From: Flaccisagitta enflata
Lineage: Eukaryota
Length of the DNA: 64,000 nucleotides
Direction of reading: 5' to 3'
Assembly: GCA_965153355.1 (NCBI GenBank)
Contig: OZ231126.1
Coordinates: 39,990,001 to 40,054,000, forward strand
Of the stretch, positions 8,605 through 57,967 are shown in pieces. Each line of letters begins with the position of its first letter. Positions within the stretch are counted from its first letter, which is position 1. The notes under the pieces were generated by a model. It worked only from the letters and a program-made list of their open reading frames with translations, was not told the origin of the DNA and ran no database searches. A program made the translations under genes and the position numbers.

Positions 8605-11310
<2,706 letters not shown>

Positions 11311-13960: not shown

Positions 13961-14294
13961 CTCAACCCTCTAAGGGCTTGGTAAAGCTCTACCGCTTCAG
14001 GCATCCCATATGCCCCATATTGATGGCATTGTCTCAGTATCTGATCTGGCAACATATCTTTGACAGAAAGAGTCTTACATTGAGATCACCATTTCAAATG
14101 TAAATGACAATCCAAAGTTATTTCTCTTCCAGCTTGGCAATGAATGAAGATCTTTGCCCTTTGGAGGCATGGCTACCCTGTCTTTTCTACCATGGGGAAC
14201 TGGTAGATTTTGAAAAAATTAAGTTTACGTCACTTTGATCATTTAAGTCATTTGTTTCGTTTTTGGGCATTTGAAGTAGTTTTAAGTCATTTTA

Positions 14295-15274
14295 CAGAGT
14301 CTTCAATTACAATTGATTTATTCTAAATTGGTGGTGTGCCTCTCATAGTCAACATTATGATTTTTTCTTTTTTTCCTCTTATTGCATATTGTTTGACGTT
14401 TTTTGTATCAAAATTTCAAGGGTTTTTGTCAAATAGTTTGTCTGTAACAACAATTTGAAGTAGTTCAGGTATTCATGGTTATAACTGAAAAAAACCTATT
14501 TTTTTCATGACATCTTTTTTTCAAACTGCCGTCATTTGTAAATCATTTGAGCTACAGAAGCCTAATTGGTCTAAAATGAAAGATAATTTCTTGTTCTTAT
14601 TGGTGACATGTCAGTCTGTCCGTTAGCTCGTCCACATGTCCTTTTGTAGGTTCATCTGACCACTGCTTGTCCAGCCATTCCATGAACTCTTTTGGCACAG
14701 GCAAGACATCGCTGCCCCAATGCCCCAACAAGTAAAAAAACCCTCGTGCCACTGCTCCTGCTCTCTTGCCCTCATATGAGACTGAGAATGAGTCTGGGAG
14801 TGATGTGTCTATGCCTTGTTCAAACTACTTGAGATGGAACAATGTTTTGATATCATGATTCCATGTGATGACTTTGAAATCAATTTTTTACACAATGTTT
14901 TCCAAACCAACAAATTTCCTTATCGTTTGTATATGATGACTGGCAATCCATATTTCATTTTTTTACCTCTTTAAAGTAGATTGAATTATGTTTCATTTGA
15001 GACCAATGAGTCATCTTTAGCTCTAACCAATTAAAATGAGAGCAAATTGAAAAAAATATCAAAACAAAAAACGATTTTTTTCAGTCACAACCATGAGTAC
15101 CTGATATACTTCAAATTGTTATTACAGACAAACTATTTGACAAAAACCCTTGAAATTTTGATAAAAAAAACGTCAAACAATATGCTACAAGAGGAAATAA
15201 AGAAGAAATCATTATATTAACTATGAGAGGCACACCATCAATTTAGAATAAATCAGTTGTAATTGAAGACCCTG
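14295..15274. mobile_element. Tc1/mariner-type MITE with ~210-bp TIRs
   Basis: TA|CAGAGTCTTCAATTAC ... GTAATTGAAGACCCTG|TA; 14295-14495 is the reverse complement of ~15075-15274. Confidence 0.85.
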
Positions 15275-15312
15275 TAAGTCATTTTGTGACATTTCAGGTC
15301 ATTTTTGGTCAT

Positions 15313-17020
15313 TGTGGAAATTTGTGCTATTTATAAGTATGGGAATGATGATGTTCTTCGCGTGAATGCTTTTTTCCTTCTTTCTGTCCAGTTCGATGCC
15401 TTTTGTTTTCGCCAAATTTTGCCGCAACCATATGGTTGCGCATGGGTTTGTTGCTCTTTTATCCGCTTGGAATTACGTGTTATCACATATTTTCTTTTTC
15501 TACTTTTTTCATCGTCATATGTTTTATGCTTCGCATTTTTATCTCGAATCTACATCGTTTTTATGGCATCGCTTCTTAATGGAATGATTGACATTTTGCT
15601 TGATTTTTATGTTTTGGCGCCCTTAGAATTTCTGACAAAGTCCTGTAGAACACAGGGGAATTCGTCTGCCCGTCCGTCCGTCCGGCATGCCCGCACGTCC
15701 GTCCCCGCCCACCTTCAGGGCTTCTGCCTCCTTGGGCTCAAATCCAAATCAGGCGGTCTAAACCAAGCAAATGGCTCAAATCCAGCCAAATGTGGGCCAA
15801 ATCCAGGTGAAATAGGCCAAATCTGGCTAGAAAACCTGAATTCTGGCCTGAGTTCTATCATCTTGGCCCCTTTAACTTAGATTCTGGCTCCCAAAACCTA
15901 CATCCAAGCCTTAGAGACCCAGATCCTGACCTTTGGGACCCAGATTCTGACCTCCAAGACCTAGGTGCTGGCCTTAAAGACTTAAATCCTAGCCTCAGAG
16001 GCCCAAATCCTGGCCTCAGAAACTGAAATTCTTGCCTCTGAGACCGAGAAATTGGTCTCTGAGGCCCAGATTCTGGCCTCAAGAGACCCAGATCCTGGCC
16101 TGCTCCTCCCTCAACTTAACCTACAAACTATTCAATAAGGGCAAGGGTACCATTGTCCATATACTGCCTTTTGTCATTTCGCCATGAAATTCAATGAAAA
16201 TTTGAATAACAGGGCATCCTGGACAGAAGGAAGGCAGACAGGACGGACGGACGGACAGATTGACGGACGGATGGACAGATTCCCCCTGTGTTCTACAGGA
16301 CTTCGTCCCCTTCGGGGCCGCTGCCCTGCTCCCTCTCAACCTTAATCACTTCCTACTCAAGCAGGGCACGGGTACCGCTGACCACTTACTGCCTTTGGGC
16401 TGCTATTATGTTTTGCGCCCTTGGAATTTCTCATCTTTTATAAGTCTCTCATCCTTTTATTCCAGAGACATATGAACGGACGCCTGACTTATTTGACGAT
16501 TACGACGCTGGCTGGAAACCAAGGAAATTTGGGCCTAAAGTAAGTTTTATCATTTAAGCGTTTTAGTGTTTTATCATTGTTTTTGTCGTCTGACTTTTTA
16601 TTGTTTTATTGTCTGTTTTTGGTGTTTTATCGTCTGTTTTTATCGTCTGTCCGGTCAACTGATTATTGGGTGATATGGGTGAATTTAGTGGGATGGGCAG
16701 GGCGGGGGCAGCGTACGGATCTGGCTTCATGGCCTCTGCATAAGATGTACATGTTGTTATTGGCTGTTTCTGTCCATGTCTATCCTGATCTCATGTTGCT
16801 TTCATGCATTGGTTGACCATCTTTTAATGCCCAATTTTCCCTTTTACTTTGTCCCCCATCTCAGATTGTTGAAATTTTTACCACATCAAAGAGACCATCG
16901 TCACGCCATTTTCCAATCTACGCCCAAATCCCTTTGCGTCTAATATCGTCAGTCAGTCAGAGACATCTACATACAAAGCTAACCCAGAGTCGAAACTAAT
17001 ATTCACGTGGGAGAATAATA
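15313..17020 (+). repeat. 5' LTR (interrupted by an ~0.8-kb HINE insertion)
   Basis: Colinear with 31288-32195 once 15634-16431 is removed; about a dozen substitutions and one indel counted by eye (~1.5% divergence). Confidence 0.93.
15634..16407 (+). mobile_element. HINE/DINE-1-like non-autonomous Helentron, family A, 5'-truncated, inserted in the 5' LTR
   Basis: Absent from the 3' LTR; TCCTGTAGAACACAGGGG subterminal inverted repeat, (GTCC)n microsatellite, internal minisatellite, 3' GCCCTGCT...AGCAGGGC hairpin. Confidence 0.8.
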
Positions 17021-17030
17021 TTTCAACAAT
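17020..17030 (+). promoter_or_regulatory. Candidate self-priming primer-binding site
   Basis: ATTTCAACAAT at the LTR/leader junction is the exact reverse complement of ATTGTTGAAAT at 16865-16875; no TGG-initiated tRNA PBS is present. Confidence 0.55.
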
Positions 17031-17087
17031 TTTAAAACTCGACTCCTCTCGGACTTTTCTTTCGACATCCCGGGGCATATCGTGTCA

Positions 17088-20000
17088 ATGGCGGCTTTCA
17101 ACGACGACGATAACTGTTCGACTGCATCTGTGTCGTCTCGGGTGTCCTTTTTGGGCAGCGGCCCCAAAGGGCCGATGTCCTGTAGAACACAGGGGGGAAT
17201 TTCCATGCGTCCGTCCGTCCGTCCGTCCTTCCGTCCGTCCCCCCCCCTGTTGGCCATCAAGGCCTCAAATTTGCCCTCCCAGCCCTAAATTTAGCCCTCC
17301 AGGCCTCAAATCAGCCTTCTAGGCTTCAAATCAGCCCCCCCCGCCTCAAATCTGACCTACAGACCTCAGATCTGCCCTCCAGACCTTCAACTAGGCCTCC
17401 AAGCATCAAATTTGCCCTCCAAACCTCAAATCCACTCTCAAAGCCTCAATTCTGCCCTCCAGCCTTCAAATATGCCTTCTTTGGCCTGAATCAGTCATCT
17501 ATTGCCAGAAATGTGCCTCCTCAGGACGTATGGAAATTCCCCCCTGTGTTCTACAGGACATCGGCCCTTTGGGGCCGCTGCCCTGCTCTCACTCCACTTC
17601 TTCACTGGATCACTCCCAGCAGGGCATCGGGTACCGCTGACCATGTGCGATCCTTGGATGACTAGTTTGGGTTGAACCAATGCCCAAGAACTGAAAAACT
17701 TCGCGTCATGAAGGGCGAATTGTCACAGGAAATGGATCGGTGTCGTCAACTCTTCGACGCCGTTTTGGCGACGACGGAAGGTTCCAACGATTATGAAGAT
17801 GCGTCGCTGGACTCAGATAGCGCCAGAAACGGTCTACGCGACTGCGTCTATGATTACATCGCTTTCGCTCGTCAAATGGCGATCGACGAGATGCCCGGCG
17901 ACCCTCTGCGTTACGCGGCGTCGAGGTTGCGTCGAATCAGACGTGAATGGGACGCCATGAGATTCTTTGACCGAGAAACGTACAACGAGGGATTTCCGGC
18001 GCATGCTGACGTCATCAATGCGCGTGAAGGCTACTTCGGCCAACGAAAGAGGAACGTACATCAGTTTTTGTGGAATAGTATACCGACTGAATCGGCTCGC
18101 GACGGCGCGGGCGCTCCTCCCTCGCGGATGAGAACGTCTTTGCCACTTTCGGAATCGTCAGAGTATTTGGGCTTGCCGACGGCGCGCCATGGCGCCCAAT
18201 CTCCCAACGGTCATATGCTCCCTCCGAGAAACGCAAACGAATACGTCGAGAGATATATTTCGGAAATTGAACCCGTCAATCCAGGCGGGCAAACGCAACG
18301 AGATGTGGATCTGGAAGATCTCGACGAAGCGGCGACGTTGGCGGACACAAAACCAGCCGACGGTTTGACGCCGAGGGAAAGATCAAGGCGTCGCGAGGCC
18401 GACAGGAGCAGAGAGAGAGAAAGAGCAGGAAGGATGCTGCAAGAGCAGATAAAACGAGATGAAGCTCTTCAGGCTAATCTGCGAGAGCAACAGCGAAGAT
18501 TGGAGCAGCAGCAGCAGCAACAGCAGCAACAACGCGAAGAGCAGGAGCAGCAGCAGCGGCAGCGGCAGCAACAACTTCAGCAGCAGCAGGAAGCAGAGCA
18601 GCAACGGCTGCAGCAGGAGCAGCAAAGAAAAGACGCTGAAGAACAACAAAGGCTTCAACAAGAGCAGCTGAGGCAACAACAGGCGGCTGCAGAGCAACAG
18701 CGACAACAACAGCAGCTGCGAGAACAACAACAACAGCAAGAACAGTTGCGCCAACATCAACTGCAGCAGGAGCAACTGCGTCAACAACAGCTCCAACAGG
18801 AACAACTTCGGCAGCAACAACAGCAACAGCAGCAGCAACAACAGCAGTAGCAGCAGCAACAGCAGCAGCAAGAGCAGCAACGCCAACAACAGTTGCAACA
18901 GCAGCAACAACAGCAGGATCAATTGCGTCAGCAACAGTTGCAACAGCATCAACAACAGCAAGCACAGTTGCATCAGCAACAGCAGCAACAAGAACAGCAA
19001 CAAAATCGACAGCAGTTGCAACAAGTTAGAATTGAGATGCAGCAAGTGCAAAAGGAACAAGAAAGGTTGCAGCAACAGATCCAAGAACAAGAACAAAGGC
19101 GGCAGCAACAAGCCGCCGAACAACAAAGAAAGCAGCAAGAAGCCCAGTTGCAGCAACAGGAGGAGGAGAAGCAGCAGCGGCTGCAACAGCAAGCAGGTCT
19201 TCAGCGGCAGCAGCAGGTTCACCAACACCAGTTGCAGCAACAAAATGTTGCCTTCAGCGTAGCTACAGTCGTCCATCCTCCTGTTTTGAATCCTCTCTCT
19301 GTCGGTAGCAAAACTTCTTCGGAAGCTGAAAATCTTCGTCAACAGCAGTTAGCGGAGCAAAGGATCCGCATGTTGGAAGGAGGTGATAAAGATGCTTCAG
19401 CAACAACGATGGTTACGGCGACAGATACATCAGAAATGATAGTCGCAGTGCCAATAAAATGTCAGCAGAGCAACAAGTCACCAGAAAAAGAACAGCAGTA
19501 CAAGCAAATGTGTCTGCGCTTCAATCAGTTGAAGGAAGAGGAGGAGGCAAGAGCGAGTCATTTCAAAAGTGTCTCTGCCGAGCAATTTAAGGGTGTGATC
19601 AATGTAGGTGATGCAGTGAAGCAGCAGAATATGGTGCCGGTGCATCCGCCCCAGGCGTCGAGGAAGCAGCCACAGCTAATCCCTACGCCGCGTCGACATC
19701 CTCAAATAGCATCCAATCCTCAACATCAACATCCAACTCAAACTCATGTTAAGCAGCAAGCATCAAGTATGGGAGCGGGAGAAGGAAAGAGAGAAGAAGG
19801 AAAGATCAACTCTAAACCTCAGCCTCAATCCTTTCCTCTTCATCAACAACCTCCGTCTGCCGTCATTCCTCCATCAGCGCCGGAAGTTATCTTCGAAAGA
19901 GAAGTTGCAGCCACGGCGCCAAACCCTTCGTCGACGGCGGCGGACATGTTGAAGCTTGATCAACTGTTGATAGACGACGCAAATGGCGTGAGGAGTAGGA

Positions 20001-21607
20001 AGAAGGAGCAGGAAGCAGCTGACGAGGTGTTTGCGCGACAGATGCAAGAGGAGGAGAAAAGAAAGTCCCAAACGCCAGCGGCAGCTTCAGCCAAACGTCT
20101 TCCCGAAGTAGACCGTCAGATGGATCGTCTTAAGAAGGATGCTGCAGATCTTAAACAAGCAAATGCAGCACAACAACGCCTTCTTCAACAAAATCAATTT
20201 GATCTGCACGCAGCGAAAGCTCAAATAGCAGAATTGCAGAAGCATCAATACATCTGTCAAGACTTTGATGCGCCAAAATTCCATCAGCATCAGCAGCAGC
20301 AACATCAGCAACAGCAGCAACAGCAAGATGACAATGTGTGGTACACTAAAACCACAAAGAAACAATCTCCAGTGAAAGTGGGAGGTCAATATGTCTCCAT
20401 CAATCCTCCTCCCACATATCAAGAGCACCACAATCATCCAACTGCCCGTCAACCGGAAGTGGTGCAGCATTTTCCTCAAAGTGAGGCACTGGAAGTGTTT
20501 CTAAAGAGAGCTTCTGACGACAATCGAATGCGGGCAAGAGAGATCGGCTTGAAGGCGATGGAGAAAGCAAGACCTGAGAAGCCGCTTCAGGAGCTCTCGT
20601 CGACGGATTATATGATGTGGAAAAACAAATTTAAAGATTCTGCGAAACATGAGGGTTTGACCGAGATGGACATTTTGCAAGAACTGCCAAAATGGTTTTC
20701 TGGGCCGGCGAAAGAGATAGTTGAGACGGCGGCGATTGGAACGACGGAAGCGGTCGCAGAGGAGGAGGTGAATGTCGCCTTCAGAAAGATGGACATCATC
20801 TTCATGGCTTCACGCGCCAACATCCCAGCGCTGTTCCACGAGATTGCCGCTGAATCGAGGATTTCATCTGCCGACCATAAGAGGCATTTCCATCTTGCGT
20901 CGAGACTGCAAAAGACGAAGAGAATTGCGCAGACATGTGGAGAACTGCCACAGTGTTACAGGAAAGAAATATTGCAGGAAATTATCAATAAAAGAGTGCC
21001 ACATTTGGCGGACAAGTTTTGGGAAAAACAGCATGAATTTGAATTGCAAGGCATCCCGTTCTCATTTGACAATTTGGTCAACATGATTGAAACTTGGGCT
21101 GTCATTCAACGCAATAAAGGGGTGGAGAGTAAGCCCGCGGCGGTGGCAGCGGTGGCAACGGGCGAAAATCCACCAACTTACAACGATGTTTTGACCAACG
21201 GGAAGCAAAAGATGCAGTCGACCGACAAATGCAACGTCTGCAGCGGAATGCATCCGACGGAAGAGTGCAACCAACTCCTTTCACTCGACGTCGACGCACA
21301 TGTTCAAAAGTTGGCATCATGCCGACTCTGCTTCCATTGTTTCACCAGTGGTCACTCAGCAAAGGGTTGCACCAACAGACCAACCTTTCAAACCTGCAAG
21401 AAACAACACGCCACCATTCTCCACGGACGCACATGGGTGAAGAAGGGTGATGGTAAGGAGGTGAAAAAAGGAGGAGAAAAGACCAATAATGGCATTCCAT
21501 TCGCCAACTTCGACAAATCCTCCAACACTTCCACCACTCCAGCTTCAGCACCTTCAACAACGACCACTACAGAATCCAATATCATCACTCCTCTCGTCGG
21601 GGCGTGA
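17088..21607 (+). pseudogene. gag: Bel/Pao gag with long polyQ N-terminal region; interrupted by a HINE (17151-17668) and a TAG at 18848-18850
   Basis: ATG 17088 (MAAFNDDD...VSF) joins in frame to GLNQCP at 17669 when the HINE is removed. ORFs 17672 and 18893 share a frame. C-terminal triple Zn knuckle: CNVCSGMHPTEEC, CFHCFTSGHSAKGC, xQTCKKQHATILH. Confidence 0.88.
17151..17668 (+). mobile_element. Complete family-A HINE inserted in a T-run in gag
   Basis: TTGGGCAGCGGCCCC start, inverted GGGGCCGCTGCCC, (GTCC)n, ~21-bp minisatellite, 3' hairpin, T-run ends; no TSD; removal restores the gag frame. Confidence 0.85.
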
Positions 21608-24600
21608 CTGGCAACGACGGCCACGTTGTGATCCGTGTCATCTTTCGACGACGTCGTCCGTCCCATCGTCCCTGTAGTGATTGTAAATTGTGTGTCTGGA
21701 GAAGAAATGACAATTTTCGCGATGATAGATAGTGGTGCGGACCGAGATGTCATCAGCCACGACGTCATCAAACATCTGCGCATTTCAACAAATATGGTTC
21801 AAATGAAAGTAGTGACAGTTGACAATTGTGTGACTGAAAACCGTCTCTTAGCGTCATTCACTCTTCGCTCCACCAACTCCGAATACATTATTGATGGGAT
21901 TTACTAACGAGTGAAAAAGATATTCCTCCATTTCTACGCAATCTCTCCGACCAACCCCACGTCAGAGGCATAAGATTCCCGGAAGCGACGGGAGGCGTCA
22001 AAATGATCGTTGGCGCCACTCATTCGGACGCAGCCATCGCTCAAGAGCTTCGTCGAGGTCCTCCAGGCTCTTTAACATGCTTCAGATGCAGTTTCGGTTG
22101 GACGATTAGTGGAAAAACTGGGAAAAAAGGTTTAGACGTCGCATCAATTAATGCTATTTCGGTTGATAATAGTGACTCACACGAAAGTATCGACCGAATT
22201 TTCTACCATGATTTTGGATCTGTCGTTTCCTCTGAAGAAATGGGCGATTCTATTGAAAACATACGCGCCTGTGAAACGCTGAAGAAAAAGATCTATTTCT
22301 GCAATGTGACAAAAAAGTATTTTGCGCCTGTGACATGGAAATTCGAATTTGAGAAGATCATGGAGATATTGCGCAAAGTGAAGTCCCGGCCTACAGCCAT
22401 GAAGCGGCTCGTCAACCAGCGCTTCCGCTTCAACCGCGACCCGGCCTTCAAGGAGCGTGTCTTTAAAGAAGTCGAAAAGTTCTATGAAACAGGCGTGGCG
22501 GTTGAGATTGACAGCATTGACGACGACGAGGACATCATTAAACCACGCTGGTACCTTCCGCTCCACATAGTGGAGCTGAGGGGTAAAACCAGAGTATGTC
22601 ACGATGCAAGGGCCGCCACCGACGGAATATGCCTAAATGATCTGTTGGTAGGTGGCCAAACTTGATGAACAGTTTAATGGACATCCTCATGCCCTTTTGA
22701 CAGTGGAAGATCGCCTTTATGTGTGATATAAAGGCGTTCTTCCACCAAATAAGAGTCCACCCTGATGATGCTGATCTCTTCAGTTTTCTCTGGTTCAAGG
22801 ATAGAAGCCACTAGACCATATTACCCTTCCAACGTCTACGATTTTATCCGTCATGGTTTTTACGTCGACGACGGAAGTGGAGGTGGTGATACAGTCGACG
22901 AGGCGTTGGAGTTGAAAGTAGGAGTGAAGTCGGCAATGGGTGATGGAGGATTCCATTTGGTAAAGTGGAAAAGCAACGCGCATCAGCTCATGGAAGGAGA
23001 TCCTAACGTCGCCATTCCCATTGCAGATAAGCAAGACCACGACAACAAGCCGACGAAAGTGTTGGGAGTCTTGTGGCTTCCGGCTGAAGACGCGTTTGTC
23101 TTCATCTGCGACAACGAGTTTAAAACAATGAGGGCGAAAACTCCACGTCAACTGGTCTCCATGCAAGCCAAACTGTACAATCCGCTCGGCTTTTGGAGCC
23201 CAAGTCAATATATTGGACGGCGCCATCTTCAACTGTGTCGTCCACAACCGACAGGATGGGATTCTGCACTTGACGAGACACTGGAGGAATCTTTTTTCAA
23301 ATATACTTCCTCTTGGCCTCTTCTCTCACAATACCGGGTCAAGAGGTGGTGGAACGGCGACACCGACAACATCAACGTCGTTTCCGTCACCATCGAGATT
23401 TTCTGCGATGCGGCGCCAAAAGGTGGATTTGGTGCTGTCGCATATCGTCGTCAAGTTAACACCGACGGCTCGATCTACGTGACAATATTGGGATCAAAGT
23501 CTCACATGGTTCCTCTCAATCCAAAAAGAGCATCTCATCACAACAGTTTACCTTGCGTGGAGATCGTCTCTGCTGAAAAGGCGATTCAGCTCAAGCGGTT
23601 CGTCAACAAGACTCTGAAGCTGCAGGAGAAAAACATCAGACTGTGGTCAGATTCAGAGGCCGCTTTGAAGATGATATACAACCCATCACGCCCAAGACCT
23701 GTCTTCTTCGCCAATCGTCTCTCAAAGATCCACGCAGGATCAAGTCCAGAGCAATGGCGGTGGGTGGATTCCGCCAATAACCCCGCCGACCATTGCTCTC
23801 GTGGAATCGAATCACATGAGGCGGAGAAGTGGAGTCAATTCCACAACGGCCCGGACTTTTTGCGTCTCCCTGAGGATCAATGGCCGCAGACAAACATCGC
23901 GACATGCCCTGTCTCTGTCCACGTGGCGGCGCTCTACGCTGCTGTCGGGGATAAGAGTGAAGAATTTGACGCGGTGCTGCATGCAGCCGCATCTCGGGGG
24001 AAATGGACGCACAAACTCCGCGTCATCGCCATGCTCTTCATTGCAATCCAGCGGTGGCGATTATTTCCAAAGGTTGAAGACTAGAGCGGCAAAGGATCTC
24101 CTCCCCAAACCGGAAGTGACGCAAGTCCATCTGGAGGAAGCGCAGAAGCGGCTCGTCAAGGCTGTGCAGCGGCAAAATTATGGAGAGGTGATAGCCCAAT
24201 TGGAGGCGGGAAAAATCAACAAACCAAACAGTCGTCATGAATTCATCGTCAAGAACAAAAAAATGCGGATGCTCAATCCTTTCGTCAACGATGACGGCAT
24301 CCTTCGAGTCGGCAGTCGATTGGTAAATGCCGACATTTCAAACAACATCAAATTTCCCTTCATTCTTCCACCAAAAGACAATAATGTGAAGTCATTAATT
24401 CGCCATGTTCATCATAATGACTTCCACGCTGGTGCAAAGCGCACATTATGCCAACTGCGTCAATTTGCGTGGATTACTAGAGGTCTTCAGGCCGTCAAGA
24501 GCGTCGTTCATTCGTGCTTTAGATGCCAGAGGAACTTTAAAAAGCATGCGAATCAGCAGATGGCGCCATTACCATCCAATCGAGTCAATCCTGCCCCTGT

Positions 24601-25507
24601 GTTTGCGGAAACAGGGTTGGATGTAATGGGACATTTCAGTGTTAAAATGAATGGCAGAGCAGACCATAAGGTGTGGGTGGCAGTCTTCACTTGCTTTGTC
24701 TCCCGCGCCGTCCACGTGGAATTGCTCTACAACATGTCCGCGGACTCAATGATCAATGCCATCATACGCTTTGCAGCCAGGCGCCCGGGTATTAGACGAT
24801 TCACATCTGATCGAGGAACTAACCTGGTAGGCGCCAACAACATCCTCAAGAAGGAAATGGAAGAGTGGAATCGCTCGTCAACTCTTGAATTGCAACGACG
24901 AGGCCTCCAATGGGATTTCATCACCGCCCGAACGCCGCATTATGGTGGTGTTTGGGAAAGAGTAGTGGCGCTTTTTAAGCGTCATCTCGCATCCATATCT
25001 ACTGGCGCCACGTTGCACGTCGACACCTTCCACACTGCCGTCATTGAAGTGGAAGGTATTCTCAACCGCCGCCCTCTTACAGCGCTGAGTGATGATCCAA
25101 GTGATCCATCGGCGCTGACGCCAAATCACATCCTATCGCCATCCACTTCCGGAAGCGCTCCTGTGGATCTGTTGCAGCACGGCGTCAACTTCGACGCGGA
25201 GTCCACACGTGTCCAATGGAAGCGCGCCCAATCTCGAGTGGATGCTTTTTGGAAGAAATGGCGTTCTGAATACTTGAGCCTTCTTCATGCGCGAAGCAAA
25301 TGGACAAAATCCGAGAAAGACTTGGCGGTTGATGATCTCGTAGTCATCGTCGACGAGGCTGTTCCCAGACACGATTGGAGCCTAGGGAGGGTCGTCGACG
25401 TGGAAGGCACATCGCCCCATGTCCGGCGGGCGCATGTGCGACGCGCTGACGGAAGAATTGTCACGAGGGATCGCACGAAGATCGTGCGGCTGGAGATGGA
25501 CTCATAA
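21608..25507 (+). pseudogene. pol: Bel/Pao pol (aspartic protease, RT, RNase H, integrase) with frameshifts, stops and an internal RT deletion
   Basis: Protease AMIDSGAD. RT: WYLPLH...RVCHDA...LNDLL, DIKAFFHQI, FYVDD. RNase H: FCDA, LWSDS, WRWVDSANNPADHCSRG, GPDFL. Integrase: HH..H...CFRC, GLDVMG, FTSDRGTNLVG, PHYGGVWERVV, C-terminal FWKKWRSEYL. Frameshifts near 21895, 22658, 22803 and 24070. Confidence 0.95.
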
Positions 25508-25869
25508 AAAACGCTAAGTTTTGAGAGAGAGAGATTTTAGGCGCATGGGCCTGTCTATTAGTAACTATAGATGTGAATGATTGTTGCTCTGTTCGTTCAT
25601 AATTGACATAAAGAGATGTACGTCTTCATATTTGGTTCTATTCATCCATGCATTCAACTCTTTCCTCATATTGGCACATTTGTGATGTTCATTTTCAGAC
25701 AAATTAAAAACATTGGTTCACTGCTTTGTATATATGTAGATATCATGCTATTTCCTATGCTTTTGTCCAAACACAGTTCATTCTTCTTACGCAATTTTCA
25801 AAGCTTCCGCTGACGTCGAACTCCATCTTCACGTCAGTTTGCATCTTGAAGTTGATTTTCGGAGTCAAG

Positions 25870-27580
25870 ATGCCATCGCGCGCGCAGCGTCTTCAGGCCG
25901 AAATGGATTCGTCGATGGCGGGTGGATCATTTGATCTCAATCGTCTGATGGCGTCTCCAGAGCGGGATGAAGACTTCGAGACGGATTCCGTCGCGTCGCT
26001 GGAGGATGTGGTGGAGGCGGCGACGAAAGCTGCCTTCAGCGGTGACCTCAACCTCTCCAAGGATGATGAGTCGGCAAAACTCCAACAGCCGGCCGACCCC
26101 GCTTCTTCTTCCGCTCTCCCTCCCCTCGTCATCGCCATCTCGGGAGGAAGTAACCGTAGAGTGAAGTTGAAGCAGCCTGTCGACAATGTCTCCATCGCCA
26201 ATTCGTCGTCGGGAACATCTGCCCTTCCAGACGCTTCCAATCTCATATTCACTCCTGACTTTGGTCGACCGGCTCCACTGGAGGCGAGAGCCCTTCTTCA
26301 GGAGCGTTTAAAAGCTGCAGACCATCGCAGTGGAAGGAAAGATCAAGACTCTCAGGTCAATGAGGAGGAGGCGGCAGAAGAGGAGGAGGGGATGGATGTG
26401 GTGGTGGTGGTAGAGGAAAAGGAGGAGGCGCCCATTGACCCGGAAGTGGATAAAGACTCTCCCGAGGTTAGAATCCAGCGGAAGCAAGCACGCTGGTTTT
26501 TCCATCGCAACAACCCCGCGGATGAGTCAGAGTCGTTGGTCTTTAAGGCCTTCTCCAAACTCAATTTGTGCTGCAACTCGAAGAAGCAAATGCGATTGTC
26601 GGCTACACAGTGTGGGTTAGGGTTTGAAACCCTAGATCGCAGACAAGGAAGGTAAAAGAAAAAGAGGGAGAATTTCAAGGAGGCTTGACGTGTCGTCCAA
26701 GCGTCGAGGAAGAATTTGACGACAAACACATCTTCTGCTGCAGCCGCAAACCCACCGGCGACATCTTCCACCATCGCAGCAGCAGATTGTCAAACGCGTC
26801 CGGCATTGGTTCATCCCCCAAATCAGCAGCGGCCGGATCCTCGTGACGAAACTCCCAACCCAAAAAGGCGTCGACAAGAGAAGAGGGCGCCGGCACTCGG
26901 TCCGGCGCAACTTCAACAGCAGCAGCAGCAACAACAGCAGCCGAAGCAGCAGCAACAACATCAACAGCAGCAACGGCAACAACAACAGCAGCAGCTGCAG
27001 CAACAACCTCAGCTTCAAGCCACGGCCAATTCCAAAAGCAAAGGCAAAGGCAAAAACAATAACAATAACAACATCAAAAAGAAGCAACAACTTCCTCCTC
27101 AGCAGCAGGAGGTTCCCAGCGCAGCGGCAACAGCTTCAGGTAGCGGGGGAGCAACTGTGTCTTCAACGGCGCCTGCGTCGAAGAAGGCAAAGGAGCTTAA
27201 ACAGCGGCCGGAAGCAGCAGCAGCGCAAGGGAAAGCAAAAGGCGACGTTCAGCCTCCAGCGGGCGCAAGTGGTTCTGCGGCGCCTAAACAGCAAGCTAAA
27301 GGACCATCAGCGCATCAGCAACAGGAGTTGGAGTCGCCAAACTCTTCGTCGACGGTTCTTGACACCGAGACTGGACATCGCATCAGCGAGCATCTGCTAC
27401 GCCTATGTGCGGCAACTCGGAGTAATGCCTCTAAACGCCAGTTGTCTAGACTTGCATCGTTCCTTCCGCCGACTAGAGTTTACCTATACGCTTTTTTATC
27501 CGCCACCTCTACCGGAAGTGGCAGATGAGACGCAAAAACGTATTTGGCACCAAAATGAGTTTCCCATTGGCGTTTTTCAG
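25870..27580 (+). pseudogene. Accessory ORF of the LTR element, predicted exon 1 (acidic/low-complexity, basic stretch, polyQ, then globular-looking end); unknown function
   Basis: ATG 25870 (MPSRAQRL). ORFs 25726 and 26716 are in the same frame, separated by TAA/TGA codons that are plausibly C-to-T changes. A 1-nt shift near 27333 gives RQTLRRRFLTPRLDIASASICYAYVRQLG...NEFPIGVFQ, ending at CAG|GT where coding-like composition drops abruptly to AT-rich. Confidence 0.65.
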
Positions 27581-28206
27581 GTTTTTCACTTGGCTATGAA
27601 GGAGTAGTAAGATTTAGGGAATTCATAGTGGATTTTCTGTGATCATTTTCAAAATTTTATAAAAATTTCCAGAACTTTTTTGCTAGCATCAAAAGATTAT
27701 TTTCATTTTTTACTTTTTTTTTATCAGTTTTCATATTTTTCATGTCATGATTCACTTTTCATTTTTTACTTTTCACTTTTTAATTTTCACTTTTCATTTT
27801 TTATTTTTCACTTTTCACTTTTCATTTGTTTTTTTTTTCCTTTTTATTTTTCACTTTTCACTTTTCATTTGTTTTTTTTTTTTCATTTTTTATTATTTTC
27901 ATTTCTACATTTCATTCATTACCTTTTATCAATTTTTTTCTTTTCAATGTACCATACTTTTAATAATTATGTTGTCACTTTTTTTTTCTTTTTCATCTAC
28001 ATCTAATATTTTCTACTCATAATTTTTCACTCAAATCTTTGTGATTATTTCATTAATCATATTTCATGGTTATATATATTTCACCAGTTGATTTGTTTTG
28101 ATAAAGCAGAAAATAAAGTAAAACAAATGATTGATGATTCTCCATCATGCTTATATCAAGATTGTATCATCCCAAAAGAAATGCTGAAATGAGTCTGCTT
28201 GTGAGT

Positions 28207-28320
<114 letters not shown>

Positions 28321-28430
28321 TTTGCACCTGCGATAATGCCATTTCCGATTTTTGTGGACCATATGTTTTGGTTAGATCGATTCTCTGGTTACATGAAGGG
28401 ACGACGGAATAGCTCTCTATATTTCTCTCT

Positions 28431-28490
<60 letters not shown>

Positions 28491-28607
28491 CTCTCTCTCT
28501 CTCTCTGGACAACAAAGCAAGAATATCAAAGGACCCATAGACAAGAAATCATATTTTCATGAATTGTCCTTTATTCTGTTCAAGTCTCAGATCTTGTTCT
28601 GGGTCTG

Positions 28608-28670
<63 letters not shown>

Positions 28671-29003
28671 CAAAATGGAGATATCACGGTGATGCCCATG
28701 CTCTTGATAATCCTAATCCATAACTAGAAAATAGTAACAAAATTTCTATTTTCTTTTATAGTACTGTAGAAAAGCAAATGAGAACATTTAAATGAAAAAA
28801 CATCACCATGTTTTGCTCAAGTATTTTCCTAAAGAGTCAACAAAGCATCGCAGGCACTGGGAAACTCATTTCATCTTAAAGATAGTAGTAATTGTAATAC
28901 TACTAAAAAAAACGTTTAAAAGCGTTTTTTAGGCTAAAAACTCCACTTATACGCAACCTACTATGCATATAATCTCAATTATACTTCCGTTATATGCCAC
29001 TAG

Positions 29004-29725
29004 ATGATTTTGTTTGAAACTCCAAACTCTACCGCCGACATATTACAAATCATTCAGCAACGCCCAGCGGGTTGAATGTGCTCATCAGCTTTGGGACATG
29101 GCGGAAAAGTCTCGAGTTGAAACCAACATCGCGGACTCGAGAAGAAAGGCGATGATTGCGCTAGATGTGAAGGTCAAGAGCGATATGCGAGTGACGGAAC
29201 TGGAGAAACAGTTGGAGAAGGCTAAGCAAGTTGCGGATGCAAAGGCAAAGGAGGCAGCGGGATCTCAGCAGTTGGCGTCGGCGGCAGCATCTGTTAAACA
29301 CGTCCTCTGCGTGCAACAAGATCCTCGCGCCATTCTAGCTCCTGTGACTGCGACAGCGTCGTCATCTCCAGCAGCATCTGCAGAAAATGGAAGTCGGCCT
29401 TCCGTCTTGACGACTGCACAAAGCGCTAAAGACGCTCCCAAGGCAACGCCAAAGAAAAAGAGGCGTCCTTGGAATACAGGCCGCCAGCCGCAGCAGCAGC
29501 AACATCATCAGCAGCCGCCGCAGTAAGGCTGTAATTCGGTGCCACGTCCACAGTTACCATCCATCTAACTACCGTCAAGTAACGCGACGTGGAGAGCGCC
29601 ATCTCGCTGAGTCGTCGTATATTCCATCGCGACGCTCATCCCTCGATGGACAGGCCGGCATTGTCGGGGGCGCTACCCGGGGCGTGGGATTCTTATCCGC
29701 CCTGGGGCCTGGCGAAAACGCCCGC
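29004..29725 (+). pseudogene. Accessory gene, predicted exon 2 (coiled-coil-like segment, PKKKRR basic motif, Q-rich end)
   Basis: CACTAG| acceptor at 29002-29003 marks the return to GC-rich coding-like sequence; 170-aa ORF 29014-29526 (…MRVTELEKQLEKAKQVADAKAKE…); strong GTAAGT donor at 29726. Confidence 0.55.
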
Positions 29726-29829
29726 GTAAGTTTCATGGAAGAGATGGTGTGTGAATTTGTCTTATTATTATGTTTGAATCTGCATATGGTAAGAACTTTA
29801 CTAATCCATCTGCCCTTTTTTCCCCTTTT

Positions 29830-30395
29830 GGGCAGCGGCCCCGAAGGGGCCGATGACCTATGCTTTCACACATAGGGGAAATTTCTCCTTCTCCTTCTTC
29901 TCCTTCTTCTCCTTCTTCTTCTTCTCCGTCCCCCCCCCCCCTCAAGGCCCAAATCCTAATCTCGAGACCCAAATCCTAGCTTCAAGGCTCAAATCCCCGC
30001 TTTGAAGCTCAAATCCTAGCCTCGAGGCTCAAATCCCAGCCCTGAGGCTCAAATCCCAGTCTCATGGCACAAATCCCAGCCTTGAAGCTCAAATCCTAGC
30101 CTCAAAGCTCAAATCCCAGCTTCGAAGCTCAAATCCCAGCCTCAAAGCTCAAATCCCAGCCTCAAAGCTCAAATCCCAGCCTCACAGCTCAAATCCCACC
30201 CTCAAAGCTCAATTCCCAGCCTCAGAGCTAAAATATCAGCCTTGAAGCTGAAATCCCAGCCTCGAAGCTCAAATCCCAGCCTCAAGGCCCTAATTCAAGC
30301 CTCAAGGCCCCAATTCCAGCCTCCAGGCCCTAATTCCATCCTTGAGGCCAAAATAAAAACAGCATAGGTCATCGGCCCCTTCGGGGCCGCTGCCC
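29830..30395 (+). mobile_element. Family-A-related HINE, 3'-truncated, flanked by a ~109-bp duplication
   Basis: Inverted repeats GGGCAGCGGCCCCGAAGGGGCCGATGACCTATGCTTT / AAAGCATAGGTCATCGGCCCCTTCGGGGCCGCTGCCC; 20-bp internal repeat (GCTCAAATCCCAGCCTCAAA). Confidence 0.8.
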
Positions 30396-31272
30396 CTCCC
30401 GCGTAAGTTTCATGGAAGAGATGGTGTGTGAATTTGTCTTATTATTATGTTTGAATCTGCATATGGTAAGAACTTTACTAATCCATCTGCCCTTTTTTCC
30501 CCTTTTTCTTCATCTCCCCGCAAGGGGGGAAAAACTTCTCAGACGATGGCGCCATCTGCCCAACTTCGCGGGGTCCATTTCGTTCCTTTCATCCTCGTCT
30601 CTTACCCACGATTTGACGAGCTGTTGGAGCTTCCGATATGGTCTGCATGTTTCCTTCGGGAAATGGTGCAGGTGACGTGATCGTTCCCATGAATCTTAAT
30701 TTTTGCTTTTCAGATTCGGTTTTAATGTAGTTTGGGTAGTAACTTATTATTTTATATTTGTTTTTGTGTTCCTCGGAACATGTCTGTTTTTATTGTATTT
30801 GACATTGACTTTTTAGTGTGTTAATTACGAAAGCGTTCGTATGTTTTGTATATTTTAGTTCAATGCCCTCCACTTATACTTTTCCACCTCGATGGCAAAT
30901 CCCAGTCTAGAGGTGCTTCTAGGCCCGTTCCCCCCTTCCCCCCCCCTTTCCCTTTTAACTTTTTCCTCAGAACGGGTGCCTTTTCTTCCTCGTCTCCGTC
31001 TCGTCTCCGCCCATCGGTCGTTGGATTGATCACATCGCTTGGTCGACGCCCCCCTCTTGCCGGACGGGGGGGGGGGAAACTTTCGCCGCCATGTTGCTCG
31101 TCGATCTCCATCTGCAAGAGGGGTGGGGATGTAAGAGGCGGAGGCGGGGGAGGGGGGCGAGGGCTGTAGTCTGTTATTGTAAATTTTTTTTTAGCGTGAC
31201 AGATGGGTTTTTTTATTAGGGTTTCCCGCGACCAGAAACTAGATGTCGGATTTTTGAAATTTGTGAAATTCC

Positions 31273-31287
31273 AAAAATGGGGCAGAG
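31273..31287 (+). promoter_or_regulatory. Polypurine tract (plus-strand primer)
   Basis: AAAAATGGGGCAGAG directly abuts the TG start of the 3' LTR. Confidence 0.7.
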
Positions 31288-32195
31288 TGTGGAAATGTGT
31301 GCTATTTATAAGTATGGGAATGATGATGTTCTTCGCGTGAATGCTTTTTTCCTTCTTTCTGTCCAATTCGATGCCTTTTGTTTTTGCCCAATTTTGCCGC
31401 AACCATATGGTTGCGCATGGGTTTGTTGCTCTTTTATCCGCTTGGAATTACGTGTTATCACGTATTTTCTTTTTCTACTTTTTTCATCGTCATATGTTTT
31501 ATGCTTCGCATTTTTATCTCGAATCTACATCGTTTTTATGGCATCGCTTCTTAATGGAATGATTGACATTTTGCTTGATTTTTATGTTTTGCGCCCTTGG
31601 AATTTCTCATCTTTCATAAGTCTCTCATCTTTTTATTCCAGAGACATATGAACGGACGCCTGACTTATTTGACGATTACGACGCTGGCTGGAAACCAAGG
31701 AAATTTGGGCCTAAAGTAAGTTTTATCATTTTAGCGTTTTAGTGTTTTATCATTGTTTTTGTCGTCTGACTTTTTATTGTTTTATTGTCTGTTTTTGGCG
31801 TTTTATCGTCTGTTTTTATCGTCTGTCCGGTCAACTAATTATTGGGTGATATGGGTGAATTTAGTGGGATGGGCAGGGCGGGGGCAGTGTACGGATCTGG
31901 CTTCATGGCCTCTGCATAAGATGTACATGTTGTTATTGGCTGTTTCTGTCCATGTCTATCCTGATCTCATGTTGCTTTCATGCATTGGTTGACCATCTTT
32001 TAATGCCCAATTTCCCTTTTACTTTGTCCCCCATCTCAGATTGTTGAAATTTTTACCACATCAAAGAGACCATCGTCACGCCATTTTCCAATCTACGCCC
32101 AAATTCCTTTGCGTCTAATATCGTCAGTCAGTCAGAGACATCTACATACAAAGCTAACCCAGAGTCGAAACTAATATTCACGTGAGAGAATAATA
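31288..32195 (+). repeat. 3' LTR, 908 bp
   Basis: Direct repeat of the 5' LTR, preceded by a purine-rich tract and followed by the GTCAT duplication. Confidence 0.93.
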
Positions 32196-32443
32196 GTCAT
32201 TTAACATGGTTTTTTGGTATGTTTTGGTCATTTATGTTTGTTGGTTTCTTTGTTTTTGGTTTTTGGTTTTTGGTTTTTGGTTTTTGGTTTTTGGTTTTTG
32301 GTTTTTTGGTTTTTTGTTTTTTTGGTTTTTTTTTTTTTTTGTTTTTTTTTTGTTGTTTTTTTTGGTTTTGTGGTCATTTATGTTTTTTGGTATGTTTTGG
32401 TCATTTATGTTTTTTGGTATGTTTTGGTCATTTATGTCATTTC

Positions 32444-33067
32444 AAGTCTGCTGGTTTAAGTCTTCTGGTTTAAGTCTGCTGGTTTAAGTCTGCTGGTTTA
32501 AGTCTGCTGGTTTAAGTCTGCTGGTTTAAGTCTGCTGGTTTAAGTCTGCTGGTTTAAGTCTGCTGGTTTAAGTCTGCTGGTTTAAGTCTGCTGGTTTAAG
32601 TCTGCTGGTTTAAGTCTGCTGGTTTAAGTCTGCTGGTTTAAGTCGGCTGGTTTATGTCGGCTGGTTTAAGTCGGCTGGTTTAAGTCTGCTGGTTTAAGTC
32701 TGCTGGTTTAAGTCTACTGGTATAAATCTGCTGGTTTAAGTCTGCTGGTTTAAGTTTGCTGATATAAGTCTGCTGGTTTAAGTCTGCTGGTTTAAGTATG
32801 CTGGTTTAAGTCTGTTGGTTTAAGTCTGCTGGTTTAAGTCTGCTGGTAAAGTCTGCTGGTTTAAGTCTGCTGGTTAAAGTCTGCTGGTTTAATTCTACTG
32901 GTTTAAGTCTGCTGGTTTAAGTCTGCTGGTTTAAGTCTGCTGGTTTAAGTCTGCTGGTTTAAGTCTGCTGGTTTAGGTCTGCTGGTTTAAGTCTGCTGGT
33001 TTAGGTCTGCTGGTTAAGGTCTGCTGGTTAAAGTCTGCTGGTCAAAGTCTGGTTTAAGTCTGGTTTA
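32444..33067 (+). repeat. 14-bp minisatellite (AAGTCTGCTGGTTT)n
   Basis: Directly visible tandem array of about 44 units. Confidence 0.95.
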
Positions 33068-33246
33068 GTCATTTTTCATTGATTGGGTTGATAGAGTTGA
33101 TTAATTTGACTCAATTACAAGTCACCACTTTTTCTAGTGGTCCCGGCCTGTAATTGGGTGGGTTTCCATGGCCTCCAATACCTCATTAAGCTGATTTATT
33201 CATCAATTCATTCAAGTCAATCTAGTCAACTAAATCATTTTATTCA

Positions 33247-57957: not shown

Positions 57958-57967
57958 NNNNNNNNNN
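57958..57967. other. Assembly gap
   Basis: Run of 10 N. Confidence 1.

Follow-up and report, generated by a model that had tools for sequence, protein, structure and literature searches.

The stretch of DNA analysed here, hereafter the window, comprises 64,000 nucleotides of Flaccisagitta enflata (assembly GCA_965153355.1, contig OZ231126.1, positions 39,990,001 to 40,054,000 of the forward strand), and all positions below are counted from its first letter. Between positions 15313 and 32195 the window holds a long terminal repeat (LTR) retrotransposon of the Bel/Pao superfamily, 16.9 kb in length including insertions, with LTRs of 908 nucleotides (Table 1). Two LTRs, a target-site duplication and a polypurine tract, the features by which an LTR retrotransposon is recognized, are all present. 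The order protease–reverse transcriptase–RNase H–integrase (PR-RT-RH-IN), the Pao-type RT/RNase H and an integrase with a DUF5641 tail identify the element as a Bel/Pao member, as a first-pass annotation of the same DNA had assigned it. The pol frames match the Pfam families Peptidase_A17 (E = 2.1e-24) and DUF5641 (E = 7.2e-21) as well as Integrase_H2C2 and rve, a YVDD motif lies upstream of the Peptidase_A17 match, and protein relatives carry PF05380; the closest relatives seen are 83% and 72% identical, followed by others at 50% or below. The bases that adjoin the 5′ LTR, where a primer-binding site (PBS) is expected, lack the signature of a tRNA site and are complementary to a segment within the LTR itself, an arrangement that suggests priming of the Tf1 type, by the element's own RNA.

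The limits of the LTRs were set by self-comparison, with a continuous 3′ LTR (31288–32195) and a 5′ LTR in two pieces (15313–15633 and 16406–17020). The 5′ and 3′ LTRs are approximately 98% identical overall, and 9 differences are listed between 16406–17020 and its 3′ counterpart. From the LTR matches, the flanking GTCAT and the purine run, the 5′ LTR ends at 17020 and is directly followed by TTTCAACAAT. The 67 nucleotides from this end to the gag start codon (ATG, 17088) contain no TGG, which bears out the earlier statement that no TGG-type tRNA site follows the 5′ LTR. A TGG at 17089, 68 nucleotides past the LTR and at the gag ATG, was considered and rejected as a PBS, because the unique 5′ region (U5) would then have to extend to it. 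The LTRs begin with TG and end with TA (AATAATA) instead of the usual CA; both copies agree (17014–17020 and 32189–32195), and their limits follow from the GTCAT duplication. A 1-nucleotide deletion at 17017, within this A/T run, is common in other copies. The TG...TA ends may be tied to the position of the self-primer.

In standard reverse transcription, the LTR ends on the right where the primer receives its first DNA base, and the primer pairs next to U5. As the primer sits where U5 ends, its 3′ end has to be complementary to 17021 onward and thus to read ...AUUGUUGAAA. Mature tRNAs end in CCA and the required 3′ end is ...AUUGUUGAAA, so a mature tRNA cannot prime this element.

The sequence ATTTCAACAAT at 17020–17030 occurs a single time in the window, and its reverse complement, ATTGTTGAAAT, is confined to 16865 and its counterpart in the 3′ LTR, 32040. 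The two segments, whose coordinates and letters the first-pass annotation had given correctly, form a perfect core of 11 Watson–Crick pairs (16865–16875 with 17020–17030). The proposed extension of the pairing by two further positions holds as a G16864·T17031 wobble and an A16863–T17032 pair, bringing the helix to 13 bp, beyond which C16862 and T17033 remain unpaired. A second helix, formed by 16876–16884 and 17007–17015 as had also been suggested, consists of 7 Watson–Crick pairs, 1 G·U pair and 1 A·G mismatch. When 16863–17040 is folded with RNAfold, the helix between the 5′ end and the PBS appears in both the minimum-energy and the centroid structures and part of the second helix forms; the last ~160 nucleotides of the LTR are thereby closed into a loop, in agreement with the earlier description. 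Calculated duplex energies are −9.5 kcal/mol for the 11-bp helix, −11.5 kcal/mol for the 12–13-bp core and −18.6 kcal/mol for the extended pairing. Just inside gag, GCTTTCAACGA at 17092–17102 repeats the PBS core TTTCAAC; this second occurrence is probably due to chance, because the 7-mer is found 6 times in the window.

The complementarity between LTR and PBS exceeds chance by exact-match statistics. When the match could begin at any of 9 offsets near the LTR end and its partner could lie anywhere in the LTR, an exact complement of at least 11 nucleotides arose in 159 of 20,000 dinucleotide-preserving shuffles. Real controls, taken as non-overlapping 17-nucleotide segments of the same element, gave an 11-nucleotide exact complement in the LTR once in 453 cases and one of at least 10 nucleotides in 6/453. 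By duplex energy, −12.5 kcal/mol or better was reached in 2 of 1,000 shuffled LTRs.

The 5′ limit of the helix coincides with a candidate transcription start. Pairing stops exactly at A16863 of TCAGATT, which, as the first-pass annotation proposed, resembles an initiator: it matches the motif YYANWYY with A+1 at 16863, a match shared by 13 of the 908 LTR positions. A16863 lies 158 nucleotides before the LTR end, a plausible length for the repeat region (R) and U5 together. By eye, no convincing downstream promoter element and no AATAAA at canonical spacing were seen in the sequence; there is only an AATAAT at 17014–17019. Contigs from RNA libraries (runs X5 and X17) bridge the LTR, the PBS and the leader, but they also cover the unique 3′ region (U3) and may include DNA carry-over, and they are uninformative here because contigs cannot show where transcription starts; gaps in the coverage of X17 are likewise without significance.

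The junction was compared with other copies of the element in four of the 24 public runs listed for the family, whose contigs were aligned to 16406–17145 at 80% likeness or above. The statements on variants that follow concern 40 substitution and 8 indel entries from a list that has nine more. The family is present in marine DNA and RNA runs and is very abundant: run X1 has 1,351 contigs on 16406–17145 with a very high summed depth. In run X11, which carries a second organism label, one contig of 1,680 nucleotides runs across all of 16406–17145, differing by 34 substitutions and 6 gaps. Of the variants covered, none falls in 16852–16927 or 17000–17051 apart from the 1-nucleotide deletion at 17017, and flanking positions vary (16821–16826, 16851, 16928–16999 and 17052–17063). 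Because the contigs of four runs show the same junction, it is not private to this copy; the non-tRNA junction and the 5′ arm are features of the family and not the product of a private deletion. The first-pass annotation had named as a possible refutation that intact copies carry a normal TGG site which this copy has lost, and this is contradicted by the four runs, in which no listed change or insertion falls in 17021–17051.

Priming of the Tf1 type is the best explanation we have for the start of minus-strand synthesis in this family, and we put its probability at roughly 0.55. Tf1 uses an 11-nucleotide primer, with the RNase H cut after nucleotide 11, and the perfect core of the pairing described here has the same length. 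In the mechanism that we propose, transcription would start at the initiator-like A16863, and the first 13 nucleotides of the RNA, AGAUUGUUGAAAU, would fold back across approximately 145 nucleotides of R-U5 to pair with 17020–17032, the imperfect second helix (16876–16884 with 17007–17015) helping to hold the fold. The RNase H of the element would then cleave the RNA where the duplex ends on its 3′ side, near 16874/16875, and free a 3′ OH that reverse transcriptase would extend, copying first U5 and then R, so that the position of the primer would fix the LTR end at 17020. The plus-strand strong-stop DNA would copy the primer in turn; each cycle would therefore rewrite the PBS from the start of R and keep the two arms complementary. 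Of the first-pass suggestion of self-priming, the part concerning complementarity now stands, as a match beyond chance that ends at an initiator-like motif, and the priming step itself remains an interpretation, favoured as the best available reading.

Self-priming has been demonstrated for Tf1 and proposed for Tj1 (PMC4600332), and further fungal elements are listed in connection with it (PMC6934838). Experimental evidence has so far come from the Tf1 group only, and predictions extend to some plant gypsy and copia lineages, namely Tcn1 and the Ty1/copia TAR lineage (PMC6317226). As in Tf1 of S. pombe, the Tf1/Sushi chromoviruses and Tj1 of S. japonicus (PMC4600332, PMC5445492), the 5′ LTR is not followed by a site of the tRNA type, and the bases adjoining it are perfectly complementary to an LTR stretch taken as the mRNA 5′ end, an end that is putative in the present element. 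Gypsy elements likewise offer a precedent for a PBS that shares the final base of the LTR (PMC3286476). Unlike the Tf1 group, the element has Bel/Pao pol domains, a marine-animal host and LTRs ending in TA rather than CA, and its self-priming is read from sequence and not from experiment. Its mechanism would be that of Tf1, but it falls outside the Tf1/Sushi clade of Ty3/gypsy, which is defined by a Ty3/gypsy-type pol with a chromodomain integrase; its Pfam matches are to Bel/Pao domains only. The case resembles Tcn1 and TAR in being an in silico prediction from a missing tRNA site and LTR complementarity, but those elements come from plants and belong to the other two superfamilies (PMC6317226). 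The fungal GalEa copia elements are similar in that a tRNA site is missing from an LTR lineage whose animal relatives use one; for GalEa, no complementarity to the mRNA start was found and a conserved local hairpin was proposed (PMC5445492), whereas the present element has an exact complement in its LTR.

Against this background, Bel/Pao elements are generally described as tRNA-primed. In line with the first-pass annotation, this is the view of the ICTV Belpaoviridae profile, which gives an 18-nucleotide site that pairs with the 3′ terminus of tRNA-Arg or tRNA-Gly; individual reports name a tRNA-Tyr site for Achilles and asparagine for an Anopheles family. The element agrees with canonical Bel/Pao (Belpaoviridae, Semotivirus) in gene order, pol domains, 5-bp target duplication and polypurine tract, and its LTRs fall within the 0.2–1.2 kb given in the profile. 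It differs in its size of 16.9 kb with insertions, compared with 4.2–10 kb in the profile, and in having no TGG site; the tRNA-type PBS describes the family in the profile without serving as a phylogenetic criterion. A survey of BEL/Pao elements (PMC3118150) contains none of the terms PBS, tRNA or primer binding. No self-primed Bel/Pao element was found in the open-access literature as far as its accessible text goes, and subscription papers, Repbase/Dfam or supplements may hold one. We regard it as an even bet that an abundant Bel/Pao lineage of a marine animal exchanged tRNA priming for Tf1-like self-priming, an independent origin in a third LTR superfamily. The choice of primer is one of the few steps at which LTR retroelements need a host RNA, and self-priming removes that dependence. 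If the reading is true, self-priming arose repeatedly, in all three LTR superfamilies, and the description of Belpaoviridae as tRNA-primed has to be corrected. Some elements that annotation pipelines report to lack a PBS, because they search for tRNA 3′ ends only, would then be accounted for as well.

Several observations weigh against self-priming. The p-values are post hoc, because the site was picked for its match. The core duplex, at −9.5 to −11.5 kcal/mol, is weak and rich in A and U, and 329 of the 453 real control segments, including 2 of the 25 AT-rich ones, reach −12.5 kcal/mol; because the score favours GC-rich segments, duplex energy does not set the site apart from real sequence, and exact-match length was therefore relied on. 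The fold of 16863–17040 as a whole is not unusually stable (z = −0.54), with 54 of 200 shuffles folding equally well. A16863 is a putative RNA start, recognized by a motif match; no convincing, conserved TATA box was seen at the usual distance when the sequence was read by eye, and TTTTAAT at 16822–16828 sits in a variable patch. The arms are not exceptionally conserved, because the 80 nucleotides of 16718–16797 are equally free of listed variants, and they offer no covariation test because both are invariant in the four runs. No DNA of a sister family was found in viral, metagenome or genome contigs. We know of no case in which a Bel/Pao RNase H cuts an RNA duplex.

Another source of the primer would be the host, through a tRNA cut in or near its anticodon loop or a small RNA whose 3′ end reads ...AUUGUUGAAA; the LTR match would then be coincidental. 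Such primers have precedents in other superfamilies, with half-tRNA sites for tRNA-Met and tRNA-Ile in plant copia elements (PMC6317226) and an internal tRNA-Lys region serving as the site in FunCo1 (PMC5445492). We nevertheless consider a host fragment unlikely, since it requires both a coincidence seen in 159 of 20,000 shuffles or one of 453 real controls and the additional coincidence of the initiator motif, present at 13 of 908 positions. Moreover, by general tRNA rules (U33, a purine at 37 and a 5-bp stem), the 13-mer would yield no self-consistent anticodon arm in any of four reading registers, and with no C and only 3 G it is unlike the stems of cytosolic tRNAs. No tRNA gene was found in the window by ARAGORN and no Rfam family matched it at the gathering score; within 16700–17200, Rfam gave only two chance-level matches (E = 2.1 and 3.9).

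That the match arose by chance, with the priming of the family not understood or the copy belonging to a non-autonomous subfamily copied otherwise, is distinctly unlikely. Post hoc selection, the weak AU-rich duplex and the AT-rich controls that reach its energy speak for such an origin, as does the degenerate state of this copy, with its nested insertions, in-frame stop and frame breaks; the exact-match statistics, the end of the helix at the initiator match, the very high abundance of the family and a junction unchanged in four runs speak against it. It is very unlikely that the pairing is real but serves another role, such as closure of R-U5 for packaging, dimerization or control of gag translation, while another primer is used. 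Retroviral RNAs have pairings that join the 5′ end to the leader over long distances, the helix is present in both predicted folds and closes the whole of R-U5, and the gag ATG is only 67 nucleotides downstream of the LTR, all of which would suit such a role. However, this would leave no primer where the replication scheme demands one, and the paired segment occupies exactly that place.

The searches for relatives covered three kinds of contigs. Among viral contigs, a query with the RT-RNase H protein returned one locus with a 22-residue match, of no use as a sister family, a query with a protein alignment gave no relatives among 40 stretches, and a wild-carded pattern of the junction had no matches. 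Among metagenome contigs, the gag N-terminus query left one candidate of 35 stretches, which was rejected as it lies on a bacterial contig, and none of 18 stretches from genome contigs was a relative. A tblastn search of the window with the proteins of the element returned the element alone and no second Bel/Pao copy.

Table 1 Features of the Bel/Pao element and its flanks (positions in the window)
Feature	Position	Strand	Basis or remark
Target-site duplication GTCAT, left copy	15308–15312	+	Directly 5′ of the 5′ LTR; same 5 bp directly 3′ of the 3′ LTR
5′ LTR, first part (U3)	15313–15633	+	Starts TGTGG; matches 31288–31607 at 97.8%
Nested dispersed-repeat insertion splitting the 5′ LTR	15634–16405	.	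Not in the 3′ LTR; limits approximate
5′ LTR, second part (rest of U3, putative R-U5)	16406–17020	+	Ends AATAATA; 98.5% to 31582–32195
Initiator-like TCAGATT (YYANWYY)	16861–16867	+	Putative +1 at A16863; motif match only
Putative self-primer, first 13 nt of the inferred transcript	16863–16875	+	Complementary to 17020–17032
Second helix, 5′ strand	16876–16884	+	7 Watson–Crick, 1 G·U and 1 mismatch with 17007–17015
Second helix, 3′ strand	17007–17015	+	3′ LTR differs at the equivalent of 17010
Putative PBS without TGG	17020–17032	+	Shares the last LTR base, adjoins U5
gag start	17088–17145	+	ATG at 17088, 67 nt after the LTR; translation
Repeat insertion with inverted ends	17146–17668	.	Breaks gag; limits approximate
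gag, two open frames	17666–21607	+	Split by in-frame stop 18848–18850; two CCHC knuckles near the end
pol, protease/RT and RT-RNase H (YVDD, Peptidase_A17)	21895–24084	+	Two frames; Pfam and translation
Integrase (H2C2, rve, DUF5641)	24380–25507	+	Residues 236–606 of frame 23675–25507
Long 3′ region	25508–31272	+	Low-complexity frames, tandem repeats, nested repeat ~29721–30506
Polypurine tract AAAAATGGGGCAGAG	31273–31287	+	Directly before the 3′ LTR
3′ LTR, 908 nt	31288–32195	+	Same primer sequence at 32038–32050; self-comparison
Target-site duplication GTCAT, right copy	32196–32200	+	

Nested insertions, an in-frame stop and a pol spread across several frames mark the copy in the window as degenerate. 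The repeat that splits the 5′ LTR occupies approximately 770 nucleotides in U3, with about 26 nucleotides of LTR sequence duplicated on both sides, which is long for a target duplication, and the window contains many other fragments of this repeat family. The repeat that interrupts gag, approximately 520 nucleotides long, resembles a miniature inverted-repeat transposable element (MITE), with inverted ends that are 98% alike (17153–17212 and 17524–17583); further copies of its family lie at approximately 1500, 13600, 47700 and 48900. The gag region is unusually long at about 1,300 codons, several hundred of which, ahead of the capsid and zinc-knuckle part, are glutamine-rich, coiled-coil-like and of low complexity, and no Pfam family was recognized in it.

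No env or other gene was recognizable in the 5.8 kb between the integrase and the polypurine tract. This region contains tandem arrays of 8-nucleotide and 20-nucleotide units, the latter of which recurs, inverted, at approximately 10000–10310, and its nested repeat has direct ends of 109 nucleotides. Just upstream of the element lies an inverted repeat with arms of approximately 300 nucleotides that are 86% alike (14292–14588 and 14984–15277). A 10-N assembly gap is found at 57958–57967, and a tandem array of period 14 begins approximately 120 nucleotides past the 3′ LTR and spans 32318–33100.

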